DNA from: a virus
Taxonomy: Duplodnaviria; Caudoviricetes
Virus record (IMG/VR): IMGVR_UViG_3300032038_000076
Location: 845 to 64,844 of that record
DNA: 64,000 nucleotides
Reading direction: 5' to 3' (one strand)
The notes below the pieces were generated by a model. It ran no database searches and was not told the origin of the DNA. It was given only the letters and a program-made list of their open reading frames with translations. This document shows positions 31,894 through 44,247 of this stretch, piece by piece. The position numbers were made by a program, and so were the translations under genes. How positions within the stretch are numbered: the first letter of the stretch is position 1; every line of letters begins with the position of its first letter.

Positions 31894-33414
31894 TCATGCG
31901 ATCACCGCTTTGTAACGGTCAGACATCAGCTTCTCTAACATGAGATCATATCCGTCCTTGCCGCTCAAAATAGTTTCAATCATGACTGGCGAAAAACCGC
32001 TGACATAACTAAATCCTTCACCAATGGCTGGAATATTATTATGTCTAGCATTAAGATTCCAGAAGATTACCTGTGGTAAATCATAACCTTCAGCTTTCCA
32101 CTGTTTCTTAATTTTTTCAAGATCAGAATTAACTTCATCAATAGAATCAACTGTCTTTCCGTAACTCCAACCCCATGTATTACGCTTCTGATGGGTATCA
32201 AAAGTTACGCAGCCATCAAATTCCATATCACTGAAAATATAAATTCTACTAGGCATATCTTCAACTTTGACATGTCTATTTTTTGCAGTTTTAAGTAACA
32301 TATCAAATACTGCCTGCAAATTAGTATTCATACCCCAATTTGCACTTTCACAACGATGGAATTTGTCAACAATATCAACGCCTTCAAATTTTACTAACTC
32401 AGGTCTTTCAGAAAAGGTAATAAAATGATTAGCAAAAGGTCCGTGTGATTTGTCTGCAATATATGCGCCCATAGAAACTGCGGCTTCCATTGGAGTTCCC
32501 GTCATAGAACCAGACACATCAATTATTGCAATACCATTCTCTTTTCTACCATTGTAAAAATCTTTCAAATTATCCCAATATTTCTGAAGCATTAATCGTG
32601 TAGGATCATCAATAGAAACCAAATGATTATTCATTCGAAAAGCTTTATGAGCAACATCATGCGGATAAAGAACTTCTGCATTTACTTTTGTATCTTTATT
32701 CTTTGCAAATTCTTCATATTTCTTAGCTAAGATGTCGCGGCGAGCAAAGGCGTTTCGATATATAATACCAGCCCTAGAAGGAATTTTATCAAATTCGATT
32801 TTATCCCACTCACCTGCGCTCATAAGACGTTCAAGAACATTGATGCGTTCACGTAAAATAGAAAGAGTCTTACGATAATTACGACTCGTCATCCCAAGAT
32901 ATTTAGCGAGTTTGCGACCAAGTCGCTTAGTTTCAGAATTAGACGCATTCTGTGAAGGCATCCATTTAGCTAATAGTGAAGGTGTTTTACATTCAAGATC
33001 AAGAGCAAGCTGATGTTTAATAATATTAAAGGCTGCGGATTCGGCACCAGTCCCCTCCGTCGAATAAATAAGATCATCCCAACGACCATACTCGCTTACA
33101 TTGTTAAGATTCTTAATAGCAATCGTTGGATAATTTCTGCATAACCAGCGAAATGCGACTCTAAAGAATCGCCGCTCTCCCTGCCCTCCGCGTACATCTC
33201 TGAGATAGAACAGGCATTTCATAGCAAGATCTGGATTTTCTTCAAAAGCATTTTTAAACAACAGTATAACATCTTCATCTGATCTCTGCCGATATGCGCC
33301 GCCAACCGCAAACATATCAAGTACTTTAGACTCGGTCGTTTTTCTGGTCACGCCGCCATTTTCTGTGTAAGTAAGATTATCATTTTTAATCATCTGATTA
33401 AGAAAAGTATTCAT
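31894..33414 (-). CDS. DUF2828 family protein (TROVE-like plus vWA, Ro60-like; 506 aa, no TAG)
   Basis: TENGG, FYLRDVRGGQGER, YGRWDDL, AKWMP, IDVSGSM (MIDAS), IFSDMEFD, FWNL. Confidence 0.85.
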   Translation of the reverse strand: MNTFLNQMIKNDNLTYTENGGVTRKTTESKVLDMFAVGGAYRQRSDEDVILLFKNAFEENPDLAMKCLFYLRDVRGGQGERRFFRVAFRWLCRNYPTIAIKNLNNVSEYGRWDDLIYSTEGTGAESAAFNIIKHQLALDLECKTPSLLAKWMPSQNASNSETKRLGRKLAKYLGMTSRNYRKTLSILRERINVLERLMSAGEWDKIEFDKIPSRAGIIYRNAFARRDILAKKYEEFAKNKDTKVNAEVLYPHDVAHKAFRMNNHLVSIDDPTRLMLQKYWDNLKDFYNGRKENGIAIIDVSGSMTGTPMEAAVSMGAYIADKSHGPFANHFITFSERPELVKFEGVDIVDKFHRCESANWGMNTNLQAVFDMLLKTAKNRHVKVEDMPSRIYIFSDMEFDGCVTFDTHQKRNTWGWSYGKTVDSIDEVNSDLEKIKKQWKAEGYDLPQVIFWNLNARHNNIPAIGEGFSYVSGFSPVMIETILSGKDGYDLMLEKLMSDRYKAVIA

Positions 33415-33989: not shown

Positions 33990-34028
33990 ATTATTTATTT
34001 ATTATAAATATATTATAACAAAAATTTT

Positions 34029-34376
34029 TTATAAAGTCAATTTATCTACTTTTTTCCAACGACCATTACCATTTTCTTCATATCTGACCCAAATACCAGG
34101 AGAAGTAATAAAATCATACCATTCACACCAGCCGCAATACTCAGCTAACCAAATGAAATCTTTAAATTCTTTTTCATCATGAAGAATGACTTTTTCACTA
34201 TAATTATAATATTTTTCGTTTAAGAGATCATCTAAATCAAATCCTAATGTTATATTATCTTTTGTGTAGATAAGAACATTTTCTAAATTTAAATGTTCCT
34301 TTTTTTCTTCATAAAAAAGACAATCATATTCATTATCAAAAATAGTTCCATCATCTGCTTCATAAAGAATATTCAT
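34029..34376 (-). CDS. Hypothetical protein (115 aa)
   Basis: AAGGAG RBS; true start MNILYEADDG inside the track ORF. Confidence 0.65.
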   Translation of the reverse strand: MNILYEADDGTIFDNEYDCLFYEEKKEHLNLENVLIYTKDNITLGFDLDDLLNEKYYNYSEKVILHDEKEFKDFIWLAEYCGWCEWYDFITSPGIWVRYEENGNGRWKKVDKLTL

Positions 34377-34386
34377 ATTATTCTCC

Positions 34387-34791
34387 TTACCAATCACTGT
34401 ATACATCCAATATTCCATGCGGGCAGCCGGTGTCATATACCTTCCCGCGATACCCAAAAGGTGTTTCAACCACCGTATATGGCGGTAAATCAACCGATGC
34501 TAAAATTATATATCCATCCGCATCGCATACAAAACCATCTGAATTAACATGTCTACCTTCAACAGGAGTTGAAGTCTAGCCAGGAAACATACTTAGAGTA
34601 TAATATGTCCAAGTCCAGCCGCCCCAATCTATCATTCCTTGATATTGAAATTCTGCTATGCTTATTTCTCTTGGCAGACTTACTTCATCATTGATTATAT
34701 GCTAATAATTTTTAACATTCTAATTATAACAATAGTTAAGATGAATGGGGAATATAATAAAGAAGCATGCTAATAATATTAATAGATTCAT
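34387..34791 (-). CDS. Membrane/secreted protein with 3D-domain-like C-terminus (134 aa, 3 TAG)
   Basis: GGAGG RBS; hydrophobic N-terminus; ETPFGYRGKVYDTGC...ILDVY. Confidence 0.55.
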
Positions 34792-34804
34792 ATTTAAACC
34801 TCCA

Positions 34805-35572
34805 TTATATATCTTTTGAATCTTTTAGATTATAATGGCGGGTGACCGTAGAAATAAATATCGAGTCTTTTCCAGATGGAAGATTAGATCCTAAAAGCAT
34901 TGTACCATCTTTTTTAAAGGTAATACCTTCAAGCTCATATTTACCTGCGGTAGCTTTTTTACTTAAATAAATAACATCAGGTTCTGTTGCGTATATGCCG
35001 CTTTTTAATATTACATTTGATTGATAATCTTGATTTGTGAAAACCACATAAATTGATTTGCTATTTGAATTATAGGCCATACCTTGAGATATTGTATATC
35101 CTTGATTAGCTTTTGTATTATTCACAGTCCAGCTATTTAATTCAATTAATCTTGAGCCTTCGCGCTGTACGATAGCAATCTTATATGTGGCACCCGCTTC
35201 ACATAAAACAAAAAACTTATTATTCTTATAATGTGCTATTGCATTAATATGTAAATTACAATCGAGTCTAGTAAATTCCCAAGTCTATGTAGATATTAAA
35301 CCACAAAAATTACTACATGGAGCAATATATAACTAATTATTGTAATAAGCCATATCATTTCCATGTAGTAAACAGTCTTTATATTTATGAGTTATATGTT
35401 TTGTTTTGGTATAATTCTAATAAACAGAAATTGCGGAGACTCGATTGTTACGTTTAGTTTTTATTGTATATAGTTTGTTATCAACTATCTACAAACTACC
35501 AAAATTTGTGCATTGACCAGAATTTTTAATTTGAATTCCTTTTTGCTACTAAAGTTTTATAGTCATAATCAT
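34805..35572 (-). CDS. Beta-propeller-like protein (255 aa, multiple TAG)
   Basis: HGNDMAY, SQGMAY and ELEGITF blade-like motifs; extends track ORF 34805 through TAGs. Confidence 0.55.
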
Positions 35573-35592
35573 CACTCCTTTTTTATTATGAC

Positions 35593-35666
35593 CAGCCCAG
35601 GCTGGATTCGAACCAGCGAAAATGCAGGAGTCAAAGTCCTGTGCCTTACCACTTGGCGACTGGGCT
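35593..35666 (-). tRNA. trnQ: tRNA-Gln(UUG)
   Basis: Cloverleaf, loop CT-TTG-AC, A1-U72, G73. Confidence 0.9.
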
Positions 35667-35674
35667 ATATAAAA

Positions 35675-35787
35675 CAAGACACATAGTTATGCATTGATCT
35701 TCCAATTGATCGACATTTCTATCAAAGAAATGATGGGATTCGAACCCACAATATCTTGCGATATAGCATTTTGCTGAATGTGTCTTT
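35675..35787 (-). ncRNA. CAGCAA-stem RNA E1: circularly permuted tRNA mimic (YrlA-like architecture)
   Basis: Terminal stem aagacacat/atgtgtctt; order T arm, loop-closed 7-bp acceptor-like stem, D-like arm. Confidence 0.7.
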
Positions 35788-35789
35788 AA

Positions 35790-35860
35790 TCGAAATAGTG
35801 CGACTCGAACGCCTCCTCTTCATCCCAAATGAAGTGTGCTACCATTACACTACTATCTCG
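35790..35860 (-). tRNA. trnP: tRNA-Pro(UGG), atypical T stem
   Basis: CTTCA-TT TGG GA-TGAAG anticodon arm; C1-G72, A73. Confidence 0.75.
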
Positions 35861-35864
35861 TTAA

Positions 35865-35956
35865 CAAGGGACTCTATAATGTTTTAATATATATATTAAT
35901 TAAACTTCAAAAATTTTAATTAAATCATTCTGTAAAATATTGCTGTTTGTCCCTTT
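35865..35956 (-). ncRNA. CAGCAA-stem RNA E2
   Basis: aagggac-aaacagcaa...gtccctt; begins just after a sigmaA promoter. Confidence 0.6.
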
Positions 35957-35994
35957 ATCTTATAAATATATTATATCAAAATTTTTTTAAAAAA

Positions 35995-36162
35995 TCAAGT
36001 ATTAGCTTTATTATCATTAGAAATATGAACTTCAAAAGTAGAAGGTAAATTTAAACCTTTTATATTAATTATTTGTCCATAATCATATTGATATAATTTT
36101 CTTGTGATGGACTATCTTCCGCCATTACTAAAATTGGCAGTAATTATATTAATTCCCATCAT
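35995..36162 (-). pseudogene. Truncated BppU-like (baseplate upper protein) N-terminal fragment (55 aa)
   Basis: TRKLYQYDYGQIINIKGLNLPSTFEVHISN, then TGA. Confidence 0.5.
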
Positions 36163-36246
36163 TTTTCCTTCCTTATTTTTATATTAAAAAATGAATTGAA
36201 TTTATTAATTAATTCAATCCATTACATTTTTATATTTAATTAAGAC

Positions 36247-36789
36247 TTAGGGCCATTCTCCAAGTGGCTTCCCTAACTTACGTTCTACATCTGTACAATA
36301 GCAAACACAACCACCTGTATAATGCATATCTTTAAAAACTTCTGCGGCAATGTCCTGATAAAGGGTACTAACAACTCCATGAGGATCATTTAAATTATCA
36401 TTGAAGAACTGAACCACGCAATTTTTAAATACAACATATGTAAAATCAATCCACTGATATCCCTCTTGAGCTGGAGCCACACAATATGCAAATGCAGGAT
36501 TCTTTTCAAAAGCAACTTCAAATAATTCTTTTGCAGATGTAAAAGCTCTATTACTAAATGGACCGTCGATATTAATTGTTAATATAACATTGCCAAACAT
36601 TTTTGTTGGCGGAAGAAGAATTGCAAGAGCAGTTGCTTTATCTCCATTATTTGTTGCAAGAGTAATTGAAGGTTCAGAAGCACTCCAATTAATATTACAA
36701 GCAATTTGCGGGTCTCCGTCAAAAAGTGCCTGAATCTAGTTCATATAAGTAATCCAAGGCGGCGCAAGTTTAAGTCTTACGTTATTCAT
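36247..36789 (-). CDS. Conserved phage hypothetical protein (180 aa, 1 TAG)
   Basis: AAGGAG RBS; LAPPWITYMN*IQALFDGDP extends track ORF 36247. Confidence 0.75.
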
Positions 36790-37010
36790 TTATTTATCTC
36801 CTTTTTACATGTAAAAATAAAATAATATCATTAAAAAAGCCAGATGAGGATATTCTACTTATAGCTATTAGCTTCACTACTTTCCAATCCACCATTATCA
36901 TCTCTCTGGCAGAGACTGTTTACTTATCGTGGTTAACTCACGCCTGTTGACTAGATAATACTATTTCAAATATTACCATACCTAGGTTACTATATGTCAA
37001 CTTAGGATAA

Positions 37011-37094
37011 TGCGGCTGGCGGGATTTGAACCCGCATGGTATCTCTACCGAGGGATTTTAAGTCCCTTGCGCCTACCTGTTTCGCCACAGCCGC
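37011..37094 (-). tRNA. trnL: tRNA-Leu(UAA)
   Basis: AGGGA-CT TAA AA-TCCCT, long variable arm. Confidence 0.92.
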
Positions 37095-37100
37095 AAATAA

Positions 37101-37173
37101 TACTCGATGTTGGACTTGAACCAACGACTTCGACTTTGTAAGAATCGCATTCTCCCAGCTGAATTAATCGAGC
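37101..37173 (-). tRNA. trnV: tRNA-Val(UAC)
   Basis: CGATT-CT TAC AA-AGTCG. Confidence 0.85.
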
Positions 37174-37309
37174 CTATAGGTAGTTTCCATCTCTGCTCGC
37201 TGAAACTACCAAACCTGAGGATCTTCCATTGTGTACACGGAATATAATTAGTTTAATGTCATAATTTATTAATGGTTGTGTCAAAACTAATAAAGATGCA
37301 ACCAGAAAA

Positions 37310-37382
37310 TGGAGTCAGAGAGAATCGAACTCTCGGCCTCATCCTTGCAAAGGATGTGCTCTCCCAATTGAGCTATGACCTC
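37310..37382 (-). tRNA. trnA: tRNA-Ala(UGC)
   Basis: CATCC-TT TGC AA-GGATG; G3.U70. Confidence 0.88.
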
Positions 37383-37454
37383 TTATGAAACTCTCCAAGC
37401 GTCTCAAATCCTTAATCTATTAATTATAAGTCAATTGCGCCACAGCCGCAAATT

Positions 37455-37566
37455 CAAGTCACATTTTTAAGTCTGGATTCGAACCAGAAATGTCTATTTT
37501 TCAGATAGATGCCTTAACCGTTTGGCTACTCTCGGAAGGACCGAGTAAAATTGCTGTATGTGACTT
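37455..37566 (-). ncRNA. CAGCAA-stem RNA E3 carrying a tRNA-Phe(GAA)-like core
   Basis: aagtcacat-acagcaa...atgtgactt enclosing D arm, TCTAT-CT GAA AA-ATAGA and a T arm. Confidence 0.7.
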
Positions 37567-37579
37567 ATTTATATTTTTA

Positions 37580-37709
37580 CAAGACCATAACGAGGTTTTT
37601 AGTTGAGTAATAGAGTTACAAAATTTCCTCGTCCACTAAATCTACTCCATCAGGTGTTAGCCGACCTTTCTATTCCAACTGTCGTATGTGATTGGCTGGA
37701 ATGGTCTTT
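37580..37709 (-). ncRNA. CAGCAA-stem RNA E3b (variant ccagccaa)
   Basis: aagaccat-tccagccaa...atggtcttg. Confidence 0.5.
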
Positions 37710-37718
37710 ATTTATTTA

Positions 37719-37789
37719 AGTAACTGAAGGGATTTGAACCCTCACCATAACTTTGGAAAAGTTATATGCTACCATTACACTACAATTAC
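37719..37789 (-). tRNA. trnG: tRNA-Gly(UCC)
   Basis: TAACT-TT TCC AA-AGTTA; U73. Confidence 0.9.
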
Positions 37790-37906
37790 ACGCGTACCGC
37801 CGCAGTGATTAACGAGATGCTTCGCGGTTTTCCTGGGTTTCATTCTCGAAGAAAGAGATGGGTGATCAAATCCTTATAAGCGATCTCTTACTTAGTCCTC
37901 GCTTCG

Positions 37907-38431
37907 TGGGCCGTGATGGAGTTGCACCACCCGAGTCAATTGACAACGCATTTATTCCTGGTTCGAGAATTGAACTCGATATTGAAAAGTTTGAAATCCT
38001 TGATTATTTTTTGTTGGTTCAAAACGTAAAGTAATTTGTTTCCTATTACCAGCTTCAATAATATCTTTTACTGGAATATTCCACATATTTAATTCGTTAT
38101 CCACACAAAATAAATAATCAAGCTCAAGATGATTGAAAATATTATCATATTCTGTACCTTTTGTTCCGCCACTTGATCTTAAGCTAATAGTTTTATCTTC
38201 AGTAGCAGTAGCTTTACATTGAACAGTATAAAATTTATTATCTTTTTCAATCACCAAATCATACCATTGAGTGTCATTCATTGGAATGGAAATAGTATAT
38301 TTATTAATTGTAAAATAATTAATAGCCATACTTAATCCTAATCTTCCCAACTATTTACGGTTAATTTTACTCATTTTCAAATCACCTATCCAGACCAGTG
38401 CGCCCCGCTACTACTTACGGTATAACGACCC
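37907..38431 (-). tRNA. trnY: Split tRNA, probably Tyr(GUA): 5' exon 38396-38431, 3' exon 37907-37954, 441-nt insertion
   Basis: GGGTCGT/ACGGCCC+A acceptor, GCGCA/TGCGT anticodon stem, long variable arm; loop CTG|TAAA. Confidence 0.75.
37952..38374 (-). mobile_element. PD-(D/E)XK (PDDEXK_5/I-Ssp6803I-like) homing-type endonuclease ORF inside the tRNA (140 aa, 1 TAG at codon 8)
   Basis: SIPMNDTQWYDLVIEKD...VQCKAT...LDYLFCV; ATG at 38374. Confidence 0.8.
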
Positions 38432-38440
38432 AAATAAAAA

Positions 38441-38524
38441 CAAGATACATTCAAAGGGTTTGAACCTTTTTAATTATTTTAGCCTAAATAATTTTTATCC
38501 TCCGAAATTGCTGTATGTATCTTT
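38441..38524 (-). ncRNA. CAGCAA-stem RNA E4 with degenerate tRNA-like core
   Basis: aagatacat-acagcaa...atgtatctt; internal hairpin and T arm AAAGG-TTCAAAC-CCTTT. Confidence 0.65.
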
Positions 38525-38525
38525 A

Positions 38526-38596
38526 AGCCCCCACCCCGACTTGAACGGGGATTGAGTGATTACAAGTCACTTCGCCTACCATTAGCGGATAAGGGC
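38526..38596 (-). tRNA. trnT: tRNA-Thr(UGU)
   Basis: AGTGA-CT TGT AA-TCACT. Confidence 0.9.
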
Positions 38597-38599
38597 AAC

Positions 38600-39250
38600 A
38601 TCTGGTTTGTTTAGGTGCTTGCCACCCAATTGAAAGCATTCCACTTTCATGCGAAATCAACTATTTCGTAAAGTGTGTGCAAAGTTTTTACGTTGCCAGA
38701 CCAACGATAGATCTTTTTGCGATCTATATACGCGGCTACATGTCCACTGCACCAGTACATTACATTGGTTCTCTGAATTTAATCAGTATGTTATGATTTT
38801 ACACTATACAGTACCATGGCTCCCGCACATAACTACTCACGAGTATAGTAGTTTGACAGCTTTTACCTCTTGTCTTTTTTACACACTCGCAGAGGAATCG
38901 TTCATTAAGGACATGAACTCATTAACGACCGCTATCACCGCAAGCACGGAGATATTCTTCTTGAATATCTAAGTCACTCTCTTTGTTTTAAGAACAAAAG
39001 TAGAAAAGAAACTTTTATTAAAATATATTTTTGTGCGTGATATATTTTAATAGACTTCGTCGAGTGTGCAGTCATAAATCGGTTTCAACCCAGCATTTAC
39101 TCAATCACACGCATTTCAAATGGATTCCACAACTTTTAATTATCTCATCCTCGCGCTTCATATCGGATAGATTGTGAGTTAGTCCTCACAGTGTTCCATT
39201 ATATGAACTTTATTTTCTTCTCGGCTTTTAATGCTTGCCTATCGACGAAA
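38600..39250 (-). ncRNA. Candidate large structured ncRNA (about 650 nt)
   Basis: No credible RBS-led ORF; lies between two tRNAs; many hairpins. Confidence 0.5.
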
Positions 39251-39324
39251 TTGCGGCGGGTGGGATTTGAACCCACGATTTTCTCCTTATGAGGGAGATG
39301 AGATAACCACTTCTCTACCCCGCA
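39251..39324 (-). tRNA. trnM: tRNA-Met(CAU), initiator-like body with bulged acceptor
   Basis: TCTCC-CT CAT AA-GGAGA; TGCGGGG 5' end. Confidence 0.75.
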
Positions 39325-39803
39325 TAATAATGCTTTTTATTTTAATCCGAAAGGAGCATTAACCAAAGAACAAACCTAAGTAGTTTTTTGTTAAGGGAAA
39401 ATAAGAAGTAAAACTATTGGTCTTCCGTCAAATCATAACTTCTTATCTAGGAAATAAAACATATTACTATGTTTCTTCATATTTTTTATTTCCTAACCTT
39501 TATAAATATATTATATAATATTTTTTTAAAAAAATCAAAAATAAGGATTTTTATCGGATAAACCCTTAAAACCATCACTAGCTTGTTGGCTTATATTAGC
39601 ACAATGGACTGTACCTCCATTTCTAAAAATTTCATCAAGCTAATGGAGAGTTGACAATTTCATGCATCTCCTGATAAATTCTACAAAGATTTATCTTCCA
39701 TGAGATTTTCCATAAAGAGAGTTGTCTTCCTACTTCTGATTTTTTCTATACCGCCGCGAAGTCCAAGCGGTAGAACCAGTTCTTAGTGACCTCGTCGGTC
39801 AAA

Positions 39804-39877
39804 TCACCCGACTGGGATTCGAACCCAGGATCCACTGATTTAGAGTCAGTTATGTTAGACCGCTCCACCATCGGGCG
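39804..39877 (-). tRNA. Amber suppressor tRNA (anticodon CUA)
   Basis: CGCCCGA TG GTGG AGCGGTCTA ACAT A ACTGA-CT CTA AA-TCAGT GGATC CTGGG TTCGAAT CCCAG TCGGGTG A. Confidence 0.93.
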
Positions 39878-39879
39878 AT

Positions 39880-40410
39880 GGGAACAGGTTTAAGGTCTCT
39901 GTCCCGACCGCTCTCTTCTCAATCAAGTTTCACATGAGCAATGTAAACGGCAGTTTTATATCTTGTCGGATAGAGAGTTTTTTGATATAGTCGTAACTTT
40001 ATCAACCTATACAGCTCACAAGGTATAATGTGGGTAAATGTTCTCTCTCTGCCTGTCCCACCTTGTTGACCACATCTTGCTTTCAATCCATTGATAAATT
40101 CAGTCTATCGTTTATCAATCCCACTATTTTTACAAGTAGATGTATAGCCGAGAGTTTCAACAGCTCTTATCCTCAGGCCCAGCGCTTCCTTATCCTGTGT
40201 TCTATTAAAGTCACAATGCTTTAATCTGTGGTCAAAATAAGATTTATATGAATATAGCTTTGTCCATTTCTTAGGCTCCCTACTCACTATAGCCTAAATT
40301 CCACTGGTCATGACTCCAGCTCCTAGGTAGTCTGCTATGGTCTCTCGCTTCCGACCGCCGCACGTGTGGTGGACTCTCTGATTGTTTATGTACACTATTA
40401 AAATCAGTTA
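39880..40410 (-). ncRNA. Candidate large structured ncRNA (about 530 nt) immediately 5' of the suppressor tRNA
   Basis: Hairpin-dense, no RBS-led ORF. Confidence 0.45.
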
Positions 40411-40430
40411 CCATTGCTATATATTATATA

Positions 40431-40595
40431 TCAAAATGCAAATTCATTATCTCTATCCAGCCGCTCAAAATAAACGACTCCAAAACGATCTTCAAGGAAC
40501 TTAACTTCTGAATAGCTTCTTACAAAAGTTATATGCTTTTTGTTGAAATCATCTTTATAAGTTACCATATAAATAACTACTCTGGTGTTTTCCAT
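40431..40595 (-). CDS. Small protein (54 aa) MENTRVVIYMVTYKDD...
   Basis: Own promoter and AAGGAGG RBS; below the track cut-off. Confidence 0.7.
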   Translation of the reverse strand: MENTRVVIYMVTYKDDFNKKHITFVRSYSEVKFLEDRFGVVYFERLDRDNEFAF

Positions 40596-40679
40596 AGCAA
40601 CGCCTCCTTAAAGATGTTGTTTATCACTTTTGTTATATATATTATAACAAAAATTTTATTAAAAATCAATAAATGATTT

Positions 40680-40986
40680 TTAATCTGGTAGTTTAGGTTT
40701 ACCTCCGCGACGAACTCTACCAAACTGGAGGAAAATTGGCTTATCCTGGTACGCATTACAAGCGTGATGAGTACTGATATAAATGGGTTTACTTTGTCTC
40801 CTTATATACCGTTTGTCACAAAAGCCACATACCATACGCCTCCAGGCGGGCTGAATAGAAACAATCAAAGTCCTGAATATTTGGTTATGTCAGTGGTAGT
40901 TTAACCCTAATCCATACTAACGGTGATTTTAATGTCTTATCTGACAAACACACTTATAATGGCTCAGGCGGGATACCCTCACCAAA
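40680..40986 (-). ncRNA. Candidate structured RNA 3' of tRNA-Asn
   Basis: Shares 5' motif with 41062-41332; 3' pseudoknot potential. Confidence 0.45.
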
Positions 40987-41060
40987 CTGCCAGAGAGAGG
41001 CTTGAACTCTCGACCTTCGGTTTAACAGACCGACGCTACCACCAACTGAGCTATCTGGCA
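40987..41060 (-). tRNA. trnN: tRNA-Asn(GUU)
   Basis: TCGGT-CT GTT AA-ACCGA; U1-A72, G73. Confidence 0.9.
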
Positions 41061-41061
41061 T

Positions 41062-41332
41062 TAATGTAGATGCTTGCCACAGCTTCAACCTTGTTCAGGT
41101 GTCTACATCACCTTACTCCAACATATCTCTTGGATGAAAGAACCTCTTTTCCTATCCCGAGGTAAAGGTATCTATAGATTATGGCTTATAGACTATGTGC
41201 CAGACCGTATTATAACTCTCAATCGGACGAACGACTGTATCCTCGACAGCTCAGATTTATATTGGCTGAGATAAATCAACTCAATACAATAAATACACTT
41301 ATGATGGTTCAGGCGGAACATCCTAAACCAAA
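41062..41332 (-). ncRNA. Candidate structured RNA between tRNA-like gene and tRNA-Asn
   Basis: Shared 5' motif; several hairpins. Confidence 0.45.
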
Positions 41333-41403
41333 TTGACAAAAAAGGATTCGAACCTTTATTTCTCCTTTTCACGGGAGCGTCTTCTCCTTTAGACGATTTG
41401 CCA
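41333..41403 (-). tRNA. Degenerate tRNA, anticodon ambiguous (GTG or GAA)
   Basis: Good acceptor, D and T arms; anticodon arm CTCC-CGTGAAAA-GGAG non-canonical. Confidence 0.55.
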
Positions 41404-41518
41404 AAACTCCATTTCTAGCGCGCCTAATGGAGCCAAGAAGATGCGCATCTTCTCTAAGATTTTTTTTGTTAATTTTAGGATAAAATCTCTAAAAATTCCT
41501 TTTATTGTTTTATAAAAA

Positions 41519-41656
41519 CAAGACAACAAGTTCCTTTTCTAAAACCAATATGGTGACCTACCAAATTAAAACCACTAAACTTCGATACTTTTGGAGCTTT
41601 TTTCATCAAAAAGCATATTTTCCTTATTTACTTTGTTTTGCTGTTCTGTTGTCTTT
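41519..41656 (-). ncRNA. CAGCAA-stem RNA E5
   Basis: aagacaaca-gaacagcaa...gttgtcttg; begins right after a sigmaA promoter. Confidence 0.6.
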
Positions 41657-41894
41657 ATCTTTATATAAATATTATATCATAAATTTTTTAAAATTTCAAA
41701 TTTCTTGATCATCCTCGCAAGGAGCGGCGCTTAGCTCGACCCTTACGAGAACAATTATAACCTCTTGAAATTTCTTTTTTATTATGTATATATTATAACA
41801 AAATTTTTTAAAAAAATCAATGAAAAAATCTCTTTTAGAGGTCTATTTTTATTTAAAAATAAATAAGATTACTTAGATAACATTGTCCAAAAAA

Positions 41895-42539
41895 TTATTT
41901 TCTCTCCCATTGATGTTTTGCTTTTGATTGCTCTTTCCACGATCTTTGAACGCATCTTGAACGATCATCCCACCAATGAGGTATTCCATGTCTGCTTCCT
42001 CTATTAAATTCTTTATAATCTGGATTTGCAAACATTCGTATAATTCTTGCGGTGCCTGGTCCAGAGTGAGAAGAGCCGCCGCGCCATTTATGAACAAAAG
42101 GAACAGGATCTTTTCTGTATTCAAACATAGTTTTTCTTTTGCTTAAATATTCATATTTTTTCTTATTATGAATTTTAAACTTATATCTATACTTCCAATG
42201 AATATTTTCCCAATAACATTTCTTAAGCGATGACCCATCTGCTTTCCATTTTTTATAAAGATCAAATGCTTTTTCTTTAAAATCACGAGCATTAATAATT
42301 CTATTATAGTTGTCATAAAACATATAACGTCTATAATAGCAATCTCCCTGTTTAAACAGGTCTTTAATATCACAAGTGCATTGCTCAAGAAAAGAATTGT
42401 AAGTTATACCCCAGAAATCATCATGAAACCATCTGGCAATAAAATTCACAATTTCATCTTCTGAATAAAAATAATCTGTGATTTCATCATATTCTGCATC
42501 ATAAAGTTTATAAAAATATTCATTAGAGATTTTATACAT
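41895..42539 (-). CDS. Hypothetical protein (214 aa) with basic, Trp-rich C-terminus
   Basis: Open ORF, RBS AAGGAG. Confidence 0.75.
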   Translation of the reverse strand: MYKISNEYFYKLYDAEYDEITDYFYSEDEIVNFIARWFHDDFWGITYNSFLEQCTCDIKDLFKQGDCYYRRYMFYDNYNRIINARDFKEKAFDLYKKWKADGSSLKKCYWENIHWKYRYKFKIHNKKKYEYLSKRKTMFEYRKDPVPFVHKWRGGSSHSGPGTARIIRMFANPDYKEFNRGSRHGIPHWWDDRSRCVQRSWKEQSKAKHQWERK

Positions 42540-42560
42540 AATAGATCTCCTTTCCCCGAA

Positions 42561-42634
42561 TGGATCATATAGGACTTGAACCTATGACCTTGGAGTTATG
42601 AGCTCCCTGCTCTCACCAACTGAGCTAATGATCC
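42561..42634 (-). tRNA. trnI: tRNA-Ile2(CAU, lysidine type)
   Basis: GGATCAT/ATGATCC+A body resembling Firmicutes Ile2; CT CAT AA loop. Confidence 0.7.
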
Positions 42635-42771
42635 TAAGAAATCTATCAAATTAAAGTTTCCCTTAATTTGATAGATATATTTAAGCAGATTATATTGGGA
42701 ACCTCAAATCTGGATTGCCTACCAGAGTATCTATTCATCGCGCGGATAACTCTTACCCAATTTCCATACTT

Positions 42772-43089
42772 TTATGCACAGCAATAATTTTTTACTTTCG
42801 CCGCCTTATTTACATATGAACAAAATGCTTTAGCATCTCTTTCTTTTGCAAAAGAAAAATGCAAATAGTTAGTAGGTTTATAGTAAAAAAAATCTTGTGC
42901 ATTAAATTTTATTAATAAATTAATATATTCATCAATAGAAAGATTAAGAATTCTCATTGGAGTGTACCATCTACTAGATCGTCCACTTAGGTTTTTAACA
43001 TCATTAACATACCATTTTTTCGTTGGAGATTCCCAACTAGTCATTTGATAGAGATGCACTCCCATAATAAGCTCCTTATGACAACCCAA
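42772..43089 (-). CDS. Hypothetical protein
   Basis: Open ORF, start uncertain. Confidence 0.6.
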   Translation of the reverse strand: MGCHKELIMGVHLYQMTSWESPTKKWYVNDVKNLSGRSSRWYTPMRILNLSIDEYINLLIKFNAQDFFYYKPTNYLHFSFAKERDAKAFCSYVNKAAKVKNYCCA

Positions 43090-43396
43090 GCTGATTTAAC
43101 AACATAGCCAATCTTTCTTTTTCTTCTGCGGATGGCTCCTGCGGAATCTGTTCATTCGTCCCTGTGGGCTTTACATCTGCGGTTGCCGCATTTTCCTCAC
43201 CAGGCAGCGCCACATCTTCACCACCTTCAACCGCAACTTTAGCTGCGGTTAATGTTACTTTTATCTGCAGCCGCTCCCCATTCTCAAGCCCGTTAATACG
43301 GATTTCTTTACCATCATTATATAAAAAGCTGCCTGGAAATGCCTTAAGAATCTTTTCAGACACTTCCTTTTTCAGAATACTTCCTTTTGCCGCCAT
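43076..43396 (-). CDS. Conserved phage hypothetical protein (106 aa)
   Basis: MAAKGSILK..., AAGGAG RBS. Confidence 0.75.
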   Translation of the reverse strand: MAAKGSILKKEVSEKILKAFPGSFLYNDGKEIRINGLENGERLQIKVTLTAAKVAVEGGEDVALPGEENAATADVKPTGTNEQIPQEPSAEEKERLAMLLNQLGLS

Positions 43397-43452
43397 ATGA
43401 TTTTCTCCTTTTATTTATTATACATATATTATATAATAAAATTTTAAAAAAA

Positions 43453-44247
43453 TCAATTTTTCTTCTTCATGCTTCGTATAATAATATGACTTTTCTCTAA
43501 TGTTTTTCCTAATTCCGCAAATCTTTCACAAATATTGCAGCTGCCTGGCTTATACATACAGCGCTTGCCGCATTTTGAACGAATTCTTCCAAAGCTACTT
43601 AAAACATATTTGTTATCTAAATCATGTTTAAAAGTAGGGATAATTTCATTAATTAATCCCATCCATTTTTCTTGTTTATAAATTTTAAAAATTACTTGCT
43701 GTCTTTCTTTGTCAGACACTAATTCAAATACATCTACAAAAGTAGAATAAATTGATATATCATTAGGACGAATAAAAAAAGTTTTTAAACTAGGGGTTTC
43801 CGCCCAACTAGACTGACAAATATTAGGATATACTCTTACTTTTATATGATTTTTATGCAAAATTTCACTAACTTTATCTAAAAAGAATCCCAATTCTTCA
43901 CAAATATACATATCAGTAGGATGGTATGCAATTAGCCCTTGCATTTGATCTATTGACGTTACTGGATTTGAAAAAAAATGCGGAATTTCATATTGTTCAA
44001 TTAATTTTAATGTTTCTTTATCATAAAAATCAACAATTAATTTAATTTTTGGATATTTTTTACAAAGTTCACTAAATAATTTAGCATCCTATTCTGTAAA
44101 AATATCAATTATATCAATGACAATTGATTTCTTTTTATAAACTTCAAGAAAATCTACTAATGTGCGATCGGCGGGCTTATATTTAATTCTTAACTAATCC
44201 GCATCTTCAATATATTTTTGATTTGGATAATAATTCAAACAAAACAT
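43453..44247 (-). CDS. U32-peptidase-like protein (264 aa, 2 TAG)
   Basis: GGAGG RBS; EDAD*LRIKY; KVRVYPNICQ, FFIRPNDI and C-terminal RSKCGKRC...CNIC. Confidence 0.55.

Follow-up and report, generated by a model that had tools for sequence, protein, structure and literature searches.

A tRNA-like minihelix delimits a ribozyme-free candidate intron in the tRNA-Tyr genes of recoded phages

Introduction

Here we analyse a transfer RNA (tRNA) gene, tRNA-Tyr(GTA), that is split in its anticodon loop by a 441-nucleotide (nt) insert. The gene lies in a 64,000-nt stretch of DNA, hereafter the window, from a virus of the Caudoviricetes (IMG/VR record IMGVR_UViG_3300032038_000076, positions 845 to 64,844). 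The insert encodes a PD-(D/E)XK endonuclease, and its two ends together form a minihelix, made up of an acceptor stem and a T arm, which runs exactly from the 5′ splice site to the 3′ splice site after one discriminator nucleotide. On balance, we favour reading the insert as a mobile, endonuclease-encoding and ribozyme-free intron, which would be excised by RNase P together with an RNase Z-type enzyme and sealed by an ATP-dependent RNA ligase. A preliminary description of this DNA, made from the letters alone, gave coordinates and a layout that proved exact (a 441-nt insert holding a PD-(D/E)XK open reading frame (ORF), 21 nt of non-coding sequence and a TAA stop supplied by the 3′ exon), and its suggestion of a mobile, protein-dependent intron remains in our judgement the best reading. 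The key feature that it overlooked is that the intron ends are a minihelix flush with both splice sites. The introns of bacteria and their phages are generally considered to be self-splicing ones only (group I and group II), enzyme-spliced tRNA introns being a hallmark of archaea and eukaryotes.

Results

The insert in the window begins and ends with the two strands of a minihelix

The outer gene encodes a class II tRNA (Table 1). Its 5′ exon consists of the acceptor strand GGGTCGT, an unusual D region and the anticodon-stem strand GCGCA (38403-38399), followed by C32, U33 and G34. The 3′ exon resumes with U35, A36, A37 and A38 and continues through the stem strand UGCGU (37950-37946), a long variable arm, the T arm GGUGG-UGCAACU-CCAUC and the acceptor strand ACGGCCC to A73, with no encoded CCA. 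A related viral contig (L001; L and G numbers denote loci and genomes, respectively) carries the same odd tRNA uninterrupted, with the anticodon loop CTGTAAA, while nearly identical exons carrying the insert are found on another contig (L002/L004). Because the L001 and insert-bearing alleles differ at a single phosphodiester bond, the junction lies uniquely between G34 and U35; this fixes the Tyr(GUA) junction at 34/35 that had previously been favoured. When spliced in silico, the window gene was called as tRNA-Tyr(GTA) by ARAGORN only with the threshold relaxed by 10% (-ps90), every spliced variant being rejected at the default threshold, and the intron options of the same program returned nothing in the region of the locus and only artefacts across the window.

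The last 25 nt of the intron comprise, in order, a T-loop hairpin (37979-37963), a 7-nt strand (37962-37956) and a single unpaired A (37955). Five of the seven nucleotides of this strand pair with intron nt 2-6. The resulting geometry is that of an acceptor stem stacked on a T arm and followed by a discriminator base, with +1 as the first and N73 as the last nucleotide of the intron, and with the endonuclease ORF occupying the place of the D and anticodon arms of this inner tRNA-like element. Scored in this way, the window copy has 5/7 acceptor pairs (the mismatches being GxA at 1-72 and AxA at 7-66), 5/5 T-stem pairs, the loop UUCAAUU and A73. In line with this arrangement, the unconstrained minimum free energy (MFE) fold of the 525-nt precursor nests the inner minihelix within the outer tRNA and contains the UCUGG/CCAGG pairing of the insert ends that the preliminary description had pointed out. 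The Rfam model for the 3′ end of transfer-messenger RNA (tmRNA) also matches at 37964-37978, with 10 bits. Taken by itself the end pairing is weak: 14 of 300 nearby offsets pair as well as 5/7, a point that counts against the intron reading. Since the pairing is insignificant in the window alone, it was therefore tested on relatives, and only across these does it become significant.

Flush minihelices recur in 33 non-redundant split tRNA-Tyr genes

A protein search of IMG/VR and metagenome contigs yielded 160 further loci beyond the first ten. Intron boundaries were set from the outer tRNA only, as a CTGTAAA loop split 3+4 or 4+3 together with a fully paired anticodon stem of 5 base pairs (bp), and 40 split tRNA-Tyr genes resulted. 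Of these, 33 are non-redundant, and their tRNA-Tyr backbones differ widely. Whole-intron MAFFT alignment misaligned the ends between intron types, and pairs and permutations were counted in Python instead.

At all 33 non-redundant loci the intron corresponds exactly to +1 to N73, or +1 to N73CCA, of a minihelix. The acceptor-like strands form 204 of 231 possible pairs, compared with 141.6 (standard deviation 5.15, maximum 165) over 100000 permutations of the partners among loci, and each position of this stem is occupied by several pair types. The T-like stem has 4-5 of its 5 pairs, with compensatory changes, and its loop is TTCAAAT at 19 loci and TTCAATT at 6 (together 25/33), the rest being close variants. 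Of the 33 loci, 30 have G at N+1, 26 have A at N73 and 25 have a G-C pair at 1-72. The AxA mismatch seen in the window at 7-66 recurs at 18 loci, only one of which is not of the CCA-less type. L131, L138 and L157, AT-rich loci that fit the outer criterion by chance, reached only 1-4/7 pairs.

Two further patterns point to excision by way of tRNA end-processing. In one group of loci (e.g. L022, L037, L038, L062 and L140) the junction is CTGT/AAA instead of CTG/TAAA, and the register of the minihelix shifts by one base along with it, with a perfect 7-bp stem; because register and junction shift together, the boundaries track the minihelix rather than a fixed position in the anticodon loop. Furthermore, an inner NCCA tail is present at 12/12 loci whose outer gene encodes CCA and at 0/21 loci whose outer gene does not, which is what shared 3′ processing predicts.

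The pattern of conservation within the ORF is consistent with this picture. Within the hairpin, third-codon positions are 92-100% conserved, compared with 54-79% in the rest of the ORF. Conservation at codon positions 1 and 2 (0.71-0.97) is otherwise higher than at position 3 (0.54-0.79), which catches up only in the last ten codons. Since conservation of the RNA type is limited to these ten codons, it indicates an RNA-level constraint at the ends of the insert, not a hidden core. At the place of the Shine-Dalgarno-like leader motif of the window, relatives have AGGAG or GGAGG.

The insert encodes an I-Ssp6803I-type endonuclease

The ORF runs from an ATG at 38374 through 140 codons to 37955, and its TAA stop (37954-37952) consists of U35, A36 and A37 of the 3′ exon, so that the non-coding part of the insert is confined to 21 nt (38395-38375). 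A single in-frame TAG, at codon 8 (38353-38351), is expected because the phage is TAG-recoded (see below). The product matches Pfam PDDEXK_5 (PF11645) over residues 5-134 with 54.5 bits (cut-off 26.1; E 1.6e-14), and also matches phrog_5018. In an AlphaFold model (mean pLDDT, the predicted local distance difference test, 75.6) the last ~20 residues, which are encoded by the minihelix, are predicted to be disordered. Chains of 2OST (I-Ssp6803I) occupied ranks 1-4 when this model was compared with the PDB using Foldseek (E 5.5e-6 to 1.5e-5, template-modelling (TM) scores 0.58-0.65), while a search of PDB sequences with the endonuclease alignment profile gave no match.

The endonuclease is intact and 50-83% identical to its relatives. 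A 33-kb metagenome contig (L098, Ga0326511_10000533) encodes an endonuclease 99% identical to that of the window, with an identical minihelix and exon junction, and probably derives from the same phage population. In IMGVR_UViG_3300031760_004865 (L004/L014), an extra A in a run of A residues shifts the reading frame ~15 codons before the end of the ORF, leaving minihelix and exons intact; this could be either a homopolymer sequencing error or the first step of endonuclease loss.

Free-standing and decayed relatives suggest how the intron arose

Most relatives of the endonuclease are free-standing genes located immediately beside an intact tRNA-Tyr(GTA) gene. At L021, L023-L028, L033, L034, L041-L048, L052, L059, L060, L064 and others, the distance is from a few to ~20 nt, and the endonuclease gene mostly lies just upstream. 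This placement fits a homing endonuclease that targets the neighbouring tRNA gene. Together with the presence/absence polymorphism of the insert, it also fits the presumed cutting of intronless tRNA-Tyr DNA by the endonuclease of the window. Some of the free-standing relatives (L007-L009) have an in-frame TGA at the conserved Trp, and their phages therefore read TGA as Trp.

The C-terminal codons of free-standing genes (...YLVKI*, TTAGTCAAAATATAA) are only a few substitutions away from the T-arm hairpin of the CCA-type intron (TTAGTTCAAATCTAA). In the intron type found in the window, the ORF extends across both the hairpin and the acceptor-like strand and stops at the UAA of the anticodon loop, adding ~4 residues. 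Free-standing endonuclease genes beside tRNA-Tyr appear to be the source from which the minihelix-bounded introns evolved.

Other relatives look like decayed or non-spliceable versions. L049 (1285-1893) and the group L051/L053-L055/L071 have an endonuclease gene directly after CTG with no T-like hairpin and with a 3′ exon lacking TAAA; L017/L018 have lost the variable arm; L035 retains only the outer acceptor strands; and L050, in genome G015, which has no clear RNA ligase, carries a deletion from the outer D loop into about codon 35 of the ORF. Taken together, the related loci appear to form an evolutionary series of free-standing gene, inactivating insertion, spliceable intron and decayed remnants.

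Known classes of intron do not account for the insert

We searched the locus for features of known introns. The Rfam group I model (RF00028, Intron_gpI) gave no match in 34000-44000 at E<=1, nor in 37850-38480 at E<=10 with lax filters, and no ribozyme or intron family of any kind in Rfam, small self-cleaving ribozymes included, matched the 631-nt region at E<=10. The end bases are likewise wrong: a group I intron would need U at the end of the 5′ exon, for the U.G pair in P1, and a terminal omega-G, whereas the last base of the 5′ exon in the window is G34 and that of the intron is A, and across the 33 relatives N-1 is G in 27, T in 5 and A in 1, with a terminal intron G in 0/33. A group I intron can therefore be set aside, there being no core, only 21 nt of non-coding sequence and no RNA-type conservation within the ORF save in its last 10 codons; the absence of a visible core, reported in the preliminary description, thus holds up.

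A bulge-helix-bulge (BHB) intron was also rejected. In that motif, two 3-nt bulges with the splice sites are separated by a 4-bp helix. In the MFE fold, by contrast, the outer anticodon stem and the inner acceptor-like stem are joined by one internal loop, on whose opposite sides the two splice sites lie, without a 4-bp stagger. Among five complete genomes of intron-bearing phages, EndA (PF01974) and RtcB (PF01139) were each found in 0/5, positive controls being detected, and to our knowledge EndA is generally absent from bacteria. The splicing endonuclease and RtcB-like ligase that had been proposed as the enzymes responsible are thus probably wrong, the minihelix pointing instead to RNase P and RNase Z.

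A model for excision and ligation

In the reading that we favour, RNase P would cut 5′ of intron nt +1, between 38396 and 38395, and an RNase Z-type endonuclease would cut after N73, between 37955 and 37954, or after N73-CCA in CCA-encoding relatives. The outer acceptor stem and the anticodon stem would keep the exon halves together, leaving a nick with 3′-OH and 5′-phosphate ends in the anticodon loop. This nick may then be sealed by an ATP-dependent RNA ligase, probably a phage enzyme of the Rnl5 or Rnl1 type encoded elsewhere in the genome, so that ...GCGCACUG would be joined to UAAAUGCG... and the 7-nt loop CTGTAAA restored. The released intron would be a tRNA-capped messenger RNA for the endonuclease, which could in turn cut intronless tRNA-Tyr genes and so bring about homing.

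We infer the two cleavages from the flush boundaries, the CCA rule and the published behaviour of RNase Z; the rejoining of the exons is likewise a prediction from sequence. Some RNase Z enzymes (archaeal ones) cut right after the discriminator in CCA-less precursors and right after CCA in CCA-containing precursors, and need little beyond an acceptor stem in their substrate (PMC7479834). Because RNase P and RNase Z leave 3′-OH and 5′-phosphate ends, the model calls for an ATP-dependent RNA ligase, which can join such ends directly, and not for RtcB, which cannot.

We then compared the ligase content of genomes at least 90% complete. An ATP-dependent RNA ligase is encoded by 7/9 intron-bearing genomes versus 2/8 genomes with free-standing endonuclease relatives only, a difference that is suggestive only (Fisher p = 0.057, uncorrected for relatedness). 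An Rnl5-like enzyme, with an N-terminal OB domain (PF21189) and PF09414, is encoded by G001, G002, G003 and G005, including 3/3 complete genomes with the intron type of the window, and its best PDB match is the Naegleria RNA ligase NgrRnl (5cot, E 1.6e-25). In the nearest complete relative, the Rnl5-like gene lies at L093:805-2073. G012 has a match to PF09414, and G011 and G014 have an enzyme of the T4 Rnl1 type.

Weighing the alternatives

Several observations weigh against programmed excision followed by ligation. The outer tRNA is odd: Rfam and default ARAGORN overlook even the intronless allele L001, so the tRNA of the window lineage has to be regarded as atypical. The record from which the window derives, a 64.8-kb fragment that is 49% complete, contains no RNA ligase; no clear RNA ligase was found in two complete intron-bearing genomes (G004 and G015) either, and two intron-free genomes do encode one. 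The nicks that Rnl5 enzymes are known to seal lie in duplex RNA and not in anticodon loops. The CCA-ending relatives require, by assumption, a bacterial enzyme that cuts precisely after CCA, and processing by RNase E and exonucleases, as is usual in bacteria, would give an imprecise end to the 3′ exon. Finally, intact exons could reflect recent homing into working genes instead of selection after insertion.

One alternative is that the minihelix is solely a processing and stability signal, which releases a tRNA-capped endonuclease messenger RNA from the transcript of the tRNA cluster, while the tRNA halves are never rejoined and the gene is dead. This would explain the flush boundaries, the covariation and the CCA correlation equally well, and it would do so without a ligase. 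It also sits easily with the decayed relatives (L017/18, L050, L035 and the L049 and L051 groups), with the two ligase-less genomes and with the fact that phage tRNA sets are partial anyway. We nevertheless consider it unlikely. A foldable tRNA-Tyr is retained at 11/13 minihelix-bearing loci of the viral set, and the outer exons have 5/5 anticodon-stem pairs and mostly 7/7 acceptor pairs across many, very different sequences, in a scan that, it should be said, itself demanded an intact outer loop and stem and is biased to that extent. Excision regenerates exactly CTGTAAA even where the junction is shifted by a base. Genomes with the intron are enriched in RNA ligases, and where a complete type-2 genome has a visibly decayed copy, which is the case only for G015 (L050), no clear ligase is present either. 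The split gene, moreover, is the sole tRNA-Tyr of two complete genomes (G001 and G005). An insertion that inactivates the tRNA, one of the earlier suggestions, is made less likely for the window copy by the conserved, covarying minihelix and the intact exons, while it seems to fit some of the decayed relatives.

The minihelix or the junction loop might also be read by other protein machinery, such as the PD-(D/E)XK protein acting on RNA or another phage enzyme. Every minihelix-bearing copy has an intact ORF, the last ~20 residues of its product are both minihelix-encoded and predicted to be disordered, and the archaeal splicing endonuclease EndA has a fold related to that of PD-(D/E)XK nucleases. 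We hold this to be distinctly improbable, however, given that the nearest match of the protein is an endonuclease that acts on DNA in homing (2OST), that its intron-free, free-standing relatives adjoin intact tRNA-Tyr genes as DNA targeting would have it, that there is neither a BHB motif nor EndA in the five complete genomes, and that the CCA correlation is specifically predicted by host 3′ processing. It is harder still to credit a cryptic self-splicing or self-cleaving ribozyme, group I-like or other, overlapping the ORF. At 441 nt the insert is long enough for a small ribozyme, and the same endonuclease family occurs in the group I intron of a cyanobacterial tRNA-fMet gene, but the silence of Rfam over the 631-nt region, the G that ends the 5′ exon in 27/33, the lack of a terminal intron G and the protein-type conservation throughout all but the last 10 codons of the ORF speak against it. 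Hardly any probability attaches, in our view, to a plain disrupted pseudogene, in which the anticodon loop was simply hit by an endonuclease gene whose ends pair by chance. The 5/7 pairing of the window, its non-canonical tRNA and those relatives (L049 and the L051 group) in which the gene occupies the same site, the T-like hairpin is missing and the 3′ exon is damaged would suit such a history; the covariation, flush boundaries, canonical T loop and CCA rule across the family are not chance, and the 99% identical copy L098 has the same structure. We retain the mobile, minihelix-bounded intron as our preferred reading.

Feature coordinates and genomic setting

Table 1. Coordinates in the window of the split tRNA-Tyr gene and the elements of its insert.
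Feature	Position	Strand	Evidence
5′ exon of tRNA-Tyr(GTA), positions 1-34	38396..38431	-	Sequence; same exon in the intronless allele L001; ARAGORN -ps90 call on the spliced product
Candidate intron, 441 nt	37955..38395	-	Presence/absence polymorphism relative to L001; boundaries set by the outer tRNA coincide with minihelix ends in 33 non-redundant relatives
Inner acceptor-like 5′ strand GUCUGGA, intron nt 1-7	38389..38395	-	Positions 2-6 pair with 37957-37961
Leader with Shine-Dalgarno-like UAGGUGA right after the acceptor-like strand, up to the ATG	38375..38388	-	Sequence
ORF of I-Ssp6803I-type PD-(D/E)XK homing endonuclease, including the TAA stop	37952..38374	-	PF11645; phrog_5018; fold closest to 2OST
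Inner T-arm-like hairpin UCGAG-UUCAAUU-CUCGA	37963..37979	-	Within the last ORF codons; 5-bp stem, 7-nt loop with U54 U55 C56 A57 A58
Inner acceptor-like 3′ strand ACCAGGA, positions 66-72	37956..37962	-	Directly after the T-like stem
Unpaired 'discriminator' A (N73), final intron nt, no CCA	37955	-	Outer gene likewise without encoded CCA
3′ exon of tRNA-Tyr, positions 35-73	37907..37954	-	Sequence; L001; ARAGORN; CCA comparison

All tRNA genes of the window lie on the minus strand, and blastn of the region against GenBank phages gave no match. Over roughly its first 36 kb (1-36800), the window can be read only if TAG is translated as sense: three ORFs there, of 2586, 1506 and 2210 codons, contain 69, 16 and 19 TAGs, respectively, whereas ORFs to the right of about 41 kb (41000-64000) are mostly without TAG. 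A suppressor tRNA(CTA) lies within the tRNA cluster (39803-39878, minus strand). This combination is the usual pattern of late-gene stop-codon recoding. In two complete relatives, a tRNA with the anticodon TTA, which reads UAA, is present besides tRNA(CTA) (L182:10222-10296 in G001 and L185:12177-12251 in G005); two different suppressor tRNAs within one phage are unusual.

Two other tRNA-like elements were noted in the window. The atypical gene at 37470-37530 (minus strand) matches the Rfam tRNA model with 46.9 bits over model positions 6-65 and has a Phe-like anticodon loop, CTGAAAA; it has no clear acceptor stem and was missed by ARAGORN. At 41332-41404 (minus strand), ARAGORN reports a 'tRNA-???' with a 2-nt anticodon. 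In addition, a 506-amino-acid ORF (31894-33414, minus strand) matches phrog_850, 'RNA-binding protein' (E 2.6e-123), and combines Pfam DUF2828 and DUF7788 with a weak VWA domain, an architecture that recalls Ro60. About 2 kb from it, between tRNA-Gln and tRNA-Pro, lies a full-length but sub-threshold match to Rfam YrlA (Y RNA-like; 35673-35786, minus strand; 32 bits against a gathering score of 69), and the two may represent a phage Ro/Y-RNA pair.

Discussion

The arrangement described here combines elements that are familiar from separate systems. Archaeal BHB introns with homing endonuclease genes, for example rRNA introns with LAGLIDADG ORFs, are spliced by EndA and RtcB. Like the insert in the window as we read it, they are protein-spliced, ribozyme-free and mobile by homing, and use a small RNA structure at the junctions as their signal; they differ in that this structure is a BHB yielding 2′,3′-cyclic phosphate and 5′-OH ends, whereas the minihelix would yield 3′-OH and 5′-phosphate ends for another class of ligase. 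In tmRNA, in the tRNA punctuation model of mitochondria and in the mascRNA of MALAT1, a tRNA-like module is cut by RNase P and RNase Z (or by other 3′ processing) and thereby sets the ends of neighbouring RNAs. Of these, tmRNA has the same topology as the insert, with an ORF enclosed by an acceptor/T-arm domain. In none of the three are the flanks rejoined, whereas the module in the window is nested in an anticodon loop, of which excision would restore the 7 nt.

The predicted sealing step, for its part, resembles the repair of anticodon loops in T4, which involves the nuclease PrrC, Pnkp and Rnl1. In both cases a phage ATP-dependent ligase would seal a nick in an anticodon loop, and Rnl1-type genes are present in two intron-bearing relatives; in T4, however, the nick is damage inflicted by host defence and its ends must be healed, whereas here it would result from programmed excision and its ends would already be ligatable. 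The group I intron in the tRNA-fMet gene of Synechocystis PCC 6803 (I-Ssp6803I, 2OST, PF11645) shares with our locus the endonuclease family, the insertion into the anticodon loop and presumed homing. There, a self-splicing ribozyme surrounds the ORF, whereas the insert in the window has no core, tRNA minihelix ends and the 21 nt of non-coding sequence.

The only published precedent that we found is in the Lak megaphages, TAG-recoded phages in which 'enigmatic' tRNA introns, including one in tRNA-Tyr(GTA), were described as belonging to no Rfam class and as having an unexplained mechanism, one of them noted as one that 'may encode a tRNA' (Devoto et al. 2019, PMC6784885). Compared by description only, the Lak introns are short, with no endonuclease gene, no excision mechanism and no flush minihelix reported (PMC6784885), and the description may be said to fit the intron in the window in outline. 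Searches of the literature turned up no intron for which excision by RNase P together with RNase Z has been described.

Whether these loci amount to a new class of 'tRNA-mimic' intron seems to us evenly balanced. Such a class would have as its sole splice signal the flush acceptor/T-arm minihelix, would be cut out by RNase P and RNase Z, with an ATP-dependent ligase joining the exons, would owe its mobility to a PD-(D/E)XK endonuclease, would be derived from free-standing genes beside tRNA-Tyr and would be widespread in TAG- or TGA-recoded metagenomic phages.

Since tRNA gene finders miss these split genes, tRNA-Tyr is under-annotated in phages. A cassette bounded by a minihelix could also serve as a simple design for excisable inserts in bacterial RNAs. 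If the reading proposed here is true, it would also account for the Lak megaphage introns in tRNA genes, which were termed 'enigmatic' in 2019 and for which we found no later explanation, and phage ligases of the Rnl5 and Rnl1 types would have a constitutive role beyond the repair of damage inflicted by host defence. Splicing in these phages would then have been improvised from housekeeping tRNA-trimming enzymes and a ligase, with an RNA signal of ~30 nt and no ribozyme.

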